This document shows, piece after piece, positions 24,333 through 25,803 of a DNA stretch of 64,000 bases. Position numbers and translations under genes: made by a program. The notes beneath the pieces are model-generated. The model worked only from the letters and a program-made list of their open reading frames with translations. It did no database searches and was not told the origin of the DNA. The DNA is from Shigella phage sb3. The stretch lies in sequence record PQ666541. One strand, 5' to 3'. Every line of letters starts with the position of its first letter. The stretch's first letter is position 1.

Positions 24333-24578
24333 TCATTTATAATAACTTCGGTGGTTTTCAAGATAAACCCTCTCAAGGAAGTCATCCCAGAACCCCATGT
24401 CTACTTTTTGCTGCATACCGTTCTTAGAAGCTTCAATGGATGCTGCTTCTACTTGATCGACCACATCTTCCAAAAACTCTTGAACCGTTTTAAATGGATG
24501 TTTACCCAGCTTCACGTCGAGAATAAATGAAGCATCTTGAAGTGGATAGACCAAGTCACCAGTTTTGTAAATTTCCAA
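24333..24578 (-). CDS. Hypothetical protein (TTG start; possibly the displaced 3' part of the upstream gene)
   Basis: 81-aa ORF whose start codon at 24576-24578 is TTG; its frame stays open upstream to 24668, overlapping the 3' end of the nucleotidyltransferase ORF. Confidence 0.35.
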   Translation of the reverse strand: MEIYKTGDLVYPLQDASFILDVKLGKHPFKTVQEFLEDVVDQVEAASIEASKNGMQQKVDMGFWDDFLERVYLENHRSYYK

Positions 24579-24607
24579 TAGTTGGAGTCCACCACGACAA
24601 GCATGAC

Positions 24608-25345
24608 TCAGGGCTTTCCAGTCAATGCCCTCATTCGCCTCAGCCTTACGAGCACGTCGCCGTATTCAGCATCTAATTTGTTCAGTGACTGCTTAAGCTC
24701 AATAAGAGAAAGCGTTGTCTGATATTTACGACCCAACACCGTATAGAATGTTTGTGGGCCTGTTTTCTCATGATTATGGAATACCCATTCACAGAATTCG
24801 TTTTCTGGAAGACGATGCTTAATATCTTCTACCTTAGTCCGACGCTGCTTAATGGAACTGCCTTCTTGATAATCAACCCATTGTTCAGGAATCTGGTTAA
24901 CAATTTCCAATACACCACGCAGTGCAGCCAATCGAGAACCCTTAACGCCGTATTTAGAAGCTTGCTTGCGAACATATCCTAAATAGGATTTCATGTTAGT
25001 CGTATAAAAACGAGAACGATTGTCTTGAATAAATTTCCATACATCAGGCAAATCAGATTTAACTACCAGTTCAGGTGGAGTGTGGAGCATATCCAATGCT
25101 ACAGTTTCACCATCTGCTGCTAATTTAAAGAAATATTTAAGACTGTATAGTTCATGGTCAATATCATCTTTAGTGTTTTTAGATGATGTGTTGTTAGTGT
25201 TTTTACTCATATGCTCTTTAACATTTCCGATAAGAATATCGCGAGCAGGAGGAACAAAGATTTCTTTAAAATCTACATCAGATTCTGGAGTAGAAGTTCC
25301 ATAAAGATGACTACCAAAATAGCTTTTCATTACTGTTTTCATCAT
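24608..25345 (-). CDS. Nucleotidyltransferase-fold protein (Pol-beta / OAS-cGAS-like GS...DxD motif)
   Basis: 245 aa; N-terminal YFGSHLYGTSTPESDVDF fits the hG[GS]x9-13Dh[DE]h signature. Confidence 0.5.
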   Translation of the reverse strand: MMKTVMKSYFGSHLYGTSTPESDVDFKEIFVPPARDILIGNVKEHMSKNTNNTSSKNTKDDIDHELYSLKYFFKLAADGETVALDMLHTPPELVVKSDLPDVWKFIQDNRSRFYTTNMKSYLGYVRKQASKYGVKGSRLAALRGVLEIVNQIPEQWVDYQEGSSIKQRRTKVEDIKHRLPENEFCEWVFHNHEKTGPQTFYTVLGRKYQTTLSLIELKQSLNKLDAEYGDVLVRLRRMRALTGKP

Positions 25346-25803
25346 TCAGCCTTATATTCAATAACAGGACATACTTTAGCTTTACGCGCTTTTAAAAATT
25401 CGACGATAATAGATTTCTTGGGTTGAATAGGAGGTAAACCTTTATACGCCCTATCAATATTTTCTACATGTAAAGCATAATCCTTTTTCCATTTATAATC
25501 TTTATATTTTTCATGCAGTTGCGCAGGAATAACAAATGAACCAATAATAAGTAAAACAAGCAAAATGGCAAGTATAAATGCTGATGGAATAAGAGTCCAT
25601 AAACTACCAAAAATAAGCCATTTCTGTATGATTTCTGCGCAGATAATAGTTAGACCTGCGAGCATAGTACATCCGAATAAAGAAACGAAAAATGTAGGGA
25701 TAACAATAGACCAAAAGTATGCACACAGTATCTTAGGTCGTTTCCATTCGTCGTTAAACATTTTGAATAATTTATAATGCCAAGAGTTTTCATTAATAAT
25801 CAT
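25342..25803 (-). CDS. Membrane protein (about 3 TM helices)
   Basis: 153 aa with long hydrophobic segments; stop overlaps the downstream start (ATGA). Confidence 0.5.
   Translation of the reverse strand: MIINENSWHYKLFKMFNDEWKRPKILCAYFWSIVIPTFFVSLFGCTMLAGLTIICAEIIQKWLIFGSLWTLIPSAFILAILLVLLIIGSFVIPAQLHEKYKDYKWKKDYALHVENIDRAYKGLPPIQPKKSIIVEFLKARKAKVCPVIEYKAE

Follow-up and report, generated by a model that had tools for sequence, protein, structure and literature searches.

Two consecutive minus-strand open reading frames (ORFs) of Shigella phage sb3, 24608..25345 and 24333..24578 in the 64,000-nucleotide stretch analysed here (sequence record PQ666541; the window), are the two halves of a single gene, the orthologue of nrdC.11 of phage T4. 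An original prediction, made from the letters alone, had read the locus as a nucleotidyltransferase (NTase) gene coupled to a membrane protein, a layout known from signalling or abortive-infection modules, and had offered a frameshift within one gene or a recoding site as explanations for the break between the two ORFs. The explanation that we favour, and that we consider likely, is an nrdC.11 gene inactivated by a real and recent deletion, with the membrane-protein gene as a mere neighbour. According to this scenario, the locus would encode an RlaP-family NTase of the Pol-beta fold that combines an N-terminal catalytic core with a C-terminal helical domain, and the genuine loss of a single A in codon 229/230 would have thrown 16 codons out of frame up to a stop. 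The resulting protein of 245 amino acids (aa) would be inactive, the 81-aa ORF with its TTG start would be an untranslated remnant of the NrdC.11 C-terminus, and nrdC.11 of the window would be a dispensable gene that has recently become a pseudogene. The membrane-protein gene would be coupled to it in the way many T4 genes are coupled, as a variable neighbour and not as a functional partner. The gene and its family are already known, and RefSeq annotates the same split for phage pSs-1.

One Gene in Two Reading Frames

The three ORFs originally proposed for the locus, i.e., 24608..25345, 24333..24578 (TTG start) and 25342..25803, have all been recovered at these coordinates, and the ATGA overlap at 25342-25345 between the gene of the 153-aa protein and the 245-aa ORF is seen directly in the sequence. 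Of the two explanations offered for the break, the frameshift within one gene has been borne out by the alignment with T4 and relatives that had been named as a check, in which the locus appears as a single uninterrupted gene of 336/337 aa and not as two separate conserved genes. Intact nrdC.11 is a single coding sequence (CDS) of 1011/1014 nucleotides (nt) in phages ECP2301, KNP5, W143 and sb2, and in T4 a CDS of 1011 nt (NP_049709), annotated 'nucleotidyltransferase' and located between nrdC.10 and mobD. The only length difference in the alignment is one base missing from the window at the minus-strand junction 24657..24658 (24658|24657), where the relatives read GGCGAACGT and the window reads GGCG-ACGT; the deletion allele at the junction is GGCGACGT, the intact allele GGCGAACGT. 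The lost A falls in the codon GAA that specifies Glu229 of T4 NrdC.11 (codon 229/230), and with the A restored a 337-aa protein is obtained, which is 97% identical over 100% of the length to the T2/T4 cluster representative. The two ORFs also match consecutive positions of one and the same profile, PHROG 388 ('nucleotidyltransferase'), of which positions 35-234 are covered by the 245-aa ORF (E 1e-83) and positions 260-339 by the 81-aa ORF (E 1e-29).

The 5' part of the gene (24608..25345, minus strand) starts with MMKTVMKSYFGSHLYGTSTPESDVDF and comprises the native residues 1-229, in which the NTase core is accompanied by helices and a beta insertion; 16 out-of-frame residues (DVLVRLRRMRALTGKP) then lead to a TGA stop. 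The 3' part (24333..24665, minus strand) continues in the -1 frame with codons 230-337 of the intact gene, is 96% identical to the C-terminus of T4 NrdC.11 and contains the 81-aa TTG ORF (24333..24578, minus strand). Upstream of this ORF the frame is indeed open, as had been noted, with its limit at 24665; position 24668, given before as the limit, belongs to the in-frame TGA itself (24668-24666). The true 3' end of the gene is marked by an intrinsic terminator (24312..24331, minus strand; AGGGAGCC-TTCG-GGCTCCCT, then a T run) lying directly after the TAA of the intact nrdC.11 frame. An equivalent terminator is found 3' of T4 nrdC.11 as well, and one has been annotated at the matching place in phage fPS-65. 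For annotation this means that both ORFs are to be described as one disrupted nrdC.11 (RlaP nucleotidyltransferase) instead of an NTase plus a hypothetical protein, and not as 'thioredoxin'.

Protein Family and Predicted Function

The assignment to the Pol-beta-fold nucleotidyltransferases, as claimed in the original prediction, has held at the level of both family and fold. The Pfam family RlaP (PF10127) is matched by the window ORF with 40.9 bits and by the repaired protein with 44 bits at a cut-off of 23, and the PF10127 annotation is carried by 120 of 120 homologues among the matches listed. The Pol-beta motifs hG[GS], DxD and a further Asp are all present in the window ORF (FGSHLYG..SDVDF..DDIDHE..ALDML). 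In an alignment of 108 diverse relatives, which reaches down to 35% identity, G10-S11 has been found to be invariant, and the Asp residues D22, D24, D60, D62 and D84 are each retained in 90% or more of the sequences. The family comprises 3322 representative clusters at 50% identity, and almost all of its 150 best representatives are matched over their full length, with about 300-360 aa.

A structure has been modelled with AlphaFold2 (AF2) on a 97%-identical relative, for which 19 close homologues yielded a predicted local distance difference test score (pLDDT) of 54.9 and the 108-sequence alignment a pLDDT of 94.1. In the model, residues 1-112 form an NTase core and residues 118-150 helices, a beta-rich insertion spans 154-208, and five helices make up the C-terminal domain (213-335); the best fold matches of the model are nucleotidyltransferases. 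The insertion at residues ~154-208 (window ~24720-24885) is the most variable segment of the protein, and a sister clade carries an unrelated-looking sequence at this place that is 8 residues shorter. For the nrdC.11 protein neither a sequence nor a fold match has been obtained to the family of cGAS, the cGAS/DncV-like nucleotidyltransferases (CD-NTases) of the cyclic-oligonucleotide-based antiphage signalling system (CBASS) and OAS, and neither a family match nor a cognate partner gene has been seen for AbiEii/MNT-HEPN. A scan of NCBIfam and sequence searches of the PDB, with the single protein as well as with the family profile, have yielded nothing informative.

Regarding the function of the family, the Pseudomonas RlaP enzymes PfRlaP and PaRlaP have been reported to add one or two nucleoside monophosphates (NMPs) to RNA 3'-OH ends (PMC12776372, a 2025 preprint). 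In the same work T4 NrdC.11 has been placed in the RlaP family, in cluster 5 of a sequence similarity network (SSN), with the assayed enzymes in cluster 1a. The view that the locus would be unexpected in a phage early region has found no support: nrdC.11 is a conserved T4 gene and RlaP member, and RlaP enzymes have been described as common in phages (PMC7824862). A comparative study has predicted that phage RlaPs restore the nucleotides cut off from tRNA by host anticodon nucleases such as RloC, after which the tRNA would be resealed by the phage RNA ligase. By analogy with these enzymes, we infer that T4-type NrdC.11 may act in nucleotide addition to RNA 3' ends, i.e., in tRNA repair.

Consequences of the Break and Dispensability of nrdC.11

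Nine residues are invariant in the family, and six of them, R230, K243, H247, R250, P267 and K278, lie downstream of the break. In the AF2 model of the relative the break falls inside helix 213-235 and removes the helices of residues 242-335; the 245-aa product keeps the catalytic core (G-S, DxD and further conserved Asp residues) and, of the five C-terminal helices, only half of the first one. The two-domain RlaP layout is found in the intact relatives and is absent from the protein encoded in the window, and the window copy of nrdC.11 is a disrupted RlaP member by descent, not a complete one. In the crystal structure of PfRlaP, the C-terminal domain has been seen to form one wall of the substrate cleft, with the last helix packing onto the NTase domain. 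Because most of the C-terminal helices and six of the nine invariant residues have been lost, the 245-aa product is most likely inactive, as judged from the sequence, the model and the analogy to PfRlaP.

Loss of nrdC.11 is not confined to the window. The segment from nrdC.11 to mobD.3 has been lost spontaneously in genome-reduced T4, the gene is disrupted in phage slur07 by a change from A5 to A4 near codon 56 and in fPS-65 by a nonsense change (CAA to TAA) at Gln254, and several contigs of ~167 kb hold nrdC.11 as C-terminal ORFs of 199, 235 or 252 aa only. These cases suggest that nrdC.11 has been lost repeatedly in Tequatroviruses, which fits a dispensable gene, and the locus described here, as one more probably inactivated copy among the T4-like phages, strengthens the case for dispensability and repeated inactivation.

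Deletion, Sequence Error or Recoding

Exactly the same A is missing in two further phages, pSs-1 and sb1 (ADG1). The former has been recognised as a carrier from a BFVD fold match to its 244-aa protein, and the latter in a tblastn census with the junction peptide. The RefSeq entries gp109 and gp108 of pSs-1 (YP_009110916 and YP_009110915) correspond to a split into 244 aa and 81 aa. While pSs-1 has been sequenced by Ion PGM and Sanger (PMC4789750), the sequence of sb1/ADG1 comes from a de novo assembly of Illumina NovaSeq reads (PMC11993411). Over 49.6 kb, the comparison of the window with sb2 and pSs-1 shows 9-13 gap openings, among which the nrdC.11 deletion is the sole uncompensated frame-breaking indel inside a gene of the window.

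Several points weigh against the favoured reading or against parts of it. The window is known as a consensus only, and a consensus error at the deletion is possible. The identical deletion lies on three local haplotypes (window, pSs-1 and sb1), which random decay would not predict. The Pfam RlaP match is limited to the NTase core, i.e., to positions 23-141 of the 249 of the profile. The RNA-repair role of the T4 clade (SSN cluster 5) would be an extrapolation from the Pseudomonas enzymes and from comparative genomics, and no RNA ligase gene adjoins nrdC.11 or lies within several kb of it in the window. Ligases are encoded elsewhere in T4-type phages (rnlA and pseT), and an association of NrdC.11 with an RNA ligase would have to act in trans in these phages.

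If the missing A were a sequencing or assembly error, the phage would carry an intact and functional nrdC.11. Such a reading can draw on the facts that a single-base indel is the classic consensus error, that the window allele is otherwise identical to the intact allele of phage ZCEC15, that in the restored frame almost every substitution past the break is synonymous, as for an intact gene, and that Ion PGM, used for the carrier pSs-1, is an indel-prone platform. However, the deletion site is an AA dinucleotide only, without any long homopolymer, and no other frame-breaking indel has been found in the window over ~50 kb in comparison with two relatives. In addition, the de novo Illumina NovaSeq assembly of sb1 and the assembly of pSs-1 from Ion PGM and Sanger data both lack this A, and sb2, which stems from the same Illumina study as sb1 and shares the same local sequence context, is intact. 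Since two platforms agree, a platform artefact is unlikely; altogether, we regard an error as an unlikely account of the missing A and hold with good confidence that the single-A deletion is real.

The original prediction had further pointed to a GC-rich patch at the break, where one gene split by a frameshift or a recoding site was suspected. The composition of this patch (24600..24670, minus strand) has been confirmed, with 56% GC against 35% for the window and only 0.2% of all 71-nt windows as high. Its reading as a recoding signal has not been sustained, since the patch encodes the most conserved motif of the family. The encoded peptide (GERARKAEANEGIDWKALSHA / YGERARKAEANEGIDWKALSHA) is invariant among close relatives and holds R230, K243 and H247, all of them invariant in the 108-sequence alignment, and the GC content is explained by codons for Gly, Ala and Arg that are under strong protein constraint. 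Programmed recoding, by -1 ribosomal frameshifting or transcriptional slippage, or a working split gene would preserve the full function of NrdC.11. Indeed, both frames are open over an overlap zone of 58 nt (24665-24608), three phages show the same break, and codon 244 (AAG), as the only such codon in this zone, could re-pair as AAA in the -1 frame. Yet neither a slippery sequence nor a structure has been found there: an X XXY YYZ heptamer is absent from the overlap zone, as is any homopolymer of at least 4 bases, no downstream structure reaches significance (z -0.3 to -0.6), and folding around the break is no better than that of shuffled controls (z -0.3 to -0.9). Even with a shift at codon 244, 15 residues would be wrong, among them the invariant R230 and K243, and a shift anywhere but at the deletion would garble the invariant motif. 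A two-piece protein would lack R230, K243, H247 and R250, because the TTG ORF begins after these invariant residues. The break is present in 3 of ~600 related records, with pSs-1 counted twice, and all others encode one continuous ORF. Recoding at the nrdC.11 break is very unlikely, and a full NrdC.11 function maintained by recoding or by a split gene appears very improbable.

Probable Recurrence of the Identical Deletion

Apart from the indel, the window and the intact allele of ZCEC15 agree at all variable sites in the interval from 24760 to 24462, and by this agreement the deletion in the window is recent. The nrdC.11 CDS of ZCEC15 is itself longer, with 1191 nt (396 aa), and its 3' end diverges sharply past window ~24460, where 36 of 150 nt differ ahead of a gap of 48 nt, which suggests a recombinant or fused C-terminus in that phage.

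The flanks of the deletion differ between the carriers. The haplotype of pSs-1 is KNP5/ECP2301-like, with differences from the window at 17 and 19 nt on the upstream side of the deletion and at 18 nt on the downstream side, and sb1 has a third haplotype, whose differences from the window lie 5 nt before and 4 nt after the deletion. Descent from one ancestral deletion would require conversion tracts shorter than 10-35 nt, so that the deletion has probably recurred, and the pattern suggests a hotspot, selection or another process behind the identical deletions. For a hotspot at the AA dinucleotide, no hairpin, quasi-palindrome or ectopic template has been found. Scans with a degenerate pattern have returned 0 carriers against 24 intact sequences in IMG/VR, 0 carriers against 12 intact sequences in the JGI metagenomes and 0 carriers in the GTDB genomes, and a 61-nt megablast against complete E. 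coli genomes has given no match of any kind.

It may be asked whether the identical deletions in these three Tequatroviruses of the Shigella-phage subclade are the footprint of a site-specific process or of repeated selection and not of random decay; we consider such a footprint quite unlikely. A site-specific process could consist of cleavage and misrepair in the conserved GC-rich patch, with the cut made by a homing endonuclease from a co-infecting phage (T4 MobD adjoins nrdC.11) or by a host defence nuclease. Selection could arise from a host defence that senses the C-terminal domain of NrdC.11 and favours its loss; the nonsense mutation of fPS-65, 24 codons further on, would fit this option. 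If true, a nuclease- or defence-driven deletion would provide a handle on the target of MobD and on the in vivo role of phage RlaP enzymes, although the evidence for it is thin.

The Adjoining Membrane-Protein Gene

In the 153-aa protein encoded upstream of nrdC.11 (25342..25803, minus strand; PHROG 944 'membrane protein'), residues ~25-95 form a single uninterrupted hydrophobic segment that is long enough for 2-3 transmembrane helices. The description as a polytopic protein fits this segment, and the exact number of three helices that had been stated is plausible and not proven. Homologues have been found in 821 phage records, down to 27% identity. In T4 mobD takes the place of the membrane gene, without a homologue within the 20 kb examined, and in T4-like phages that are more distant (Moon, STML-198, Mexia and CBH8) the membrane gene and the NTase gene are set apart by one to three other small genes.

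An NTase next to a membrane protein could represent a Hailong module (HalB plus the HalA channel), CBASS or an abortive-infection (Abi)-type module, either as a phage copy or as a counter-defence mimic. The overlap of the two genes by ATGA speaks for such a module, as does the neighbourhood that homologues of both genes share across several Tevenvirinae genera. However, T4 keeps nrdC.11 with mobD in place of the membrane gene, the pair is parted by other genes in the four phages named above, and four-base ATGA overlaps are routine, being present at 12 of the 112 crude minus-strand ORF junctions in the window. PADLOC has returned 0 matches for the four proteins scanned (the NTase, the membrane protein, nrdC.10 and a 173-aa y05I-like protein), the profile of the NrdC.11 family has found no sequence-level match to HalB at E<=1, and no solved PDB chain has matched the membrane protein at E<=10. 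A resemblance to HalB is the only hint toward an NTase-plus-channel system, and it is weak. We judge a module of this kind very improbable, and the signalling or abortive-infection function with a membrane partner, as originally suggested, has found no support. Because of the separation of the pair, the replacement by mobD, the frequency of ATGA overlaps and the lack of matches, the pairing is better described as T4-type synteny and gene packing than as a two-gene module.

Genome Context and Neighbouring Genes

The window around nrdC.11 corresponds to the nrdC–mobD–rI early region of Tequatrovirus, in which all genes lie on the minus strand. A 1.7-kb stretch of the locus is matched by 676 phage records with a top identity of 96.7%, and the Shigella phages sb2, KNP5 and pSs-1 are 96-97% identical to a 24-kb stretch of the window. 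Next to the membrane-protein gene, two tandem y05I/mobD.1-like genes encode proteins of 173 aa and 184 aa (25806..26888, minus strand; both PHROG 1502), the 173-aa copy matching Pfam T4_y05I_N/C. At the position of this tandem pair, only one mobD.1 is found in T4; the homing endonuclease gene mobD, which comes next there, is absent from the window.

On the other side, the nrdC.10 orthologue (23250..24281, minus strand; P-loop/AAA-like, PHROG 1250) possesses, just past the nrdC.11 terminator, its own T4-early-like promoter (TTTACA-17-TACTAT, 24281..24253) and constitutes a transcription unit of its own. Weak, sub-threshold matches of its product to AAA and STAND NTPase families (AAA_14 and nSTAND3) have also been observed.

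The vs gene (valyl-tRNA synthetase modifier) of sb2 lacks 7 bp that are present near the 5' end of the gene in the window (at 31430) and in pSs-1, and the CDS annotated for it in sb2 is shorter. A frameshift in the vs gene of the window has been considered and rejected, as this 7-bp indel belongs to sb2 and vs of the window is intact (31138..31485, 115 aa).

Misannotation is spread over homologues of the region. NrdC.11 and nrdC.10 homologues are called 'thioredoxin' in many records, one NrdC.11 homologue is listed as 'HNH homing endonuclease', and mobD.x genes have been mislabelled 'molybdopterin-guanine dinucleotide biosynthesis protein MobD'. The membrane protein carries the label 'prohead core protein' in T2 and T6 records.

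Comparison With Known Systems

Compared with Hailong, HalB (PDB 9dbh and 9dbj) shares 16% identity over 162 residues with the NrdC.11 protein, which reflects the generic core. With 217 aa, HalB is without the large helical C-terminal domain of NrdC.11, and the membrane neighbour of nrdC.11 is not conserved as a partner, as would be expected of an obligate HalA-like effector.

The RlaP enzymes share with the T4-type proteins the Pfam match, the hG[GS]...DxD...D motifs and an architecture of NTase and helical domain that ends in a long C-terminal helix. From the assayed RlaPs, the T4-type proteins differ by their separate SSN cluster, by the beta-rich insertion at ~154-208 and by a gene without an adjoining RNA ligase.

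The closest counterparts of the window allele itself are those of pSs-1 and sb1, which have the same 1-nt deletion and the same split into 244/245 aa and 81 aa on different flanking haplotypes. With T4 NrdC.11 ('uncharacterised 38.9 kDa protein in nrdC-mobD intergenic region') the window copy shares its position between nrdC.10 and the mobD.x genes, its length once the A is restored, and a protein identity of about 96-97%. It differs from T4 by the frameshift at codon 229/230 and by the gene upstream, which is the HNH homing endonuclease gene mobD in T4 and the gene of the 153-aa membrane protein in the window.

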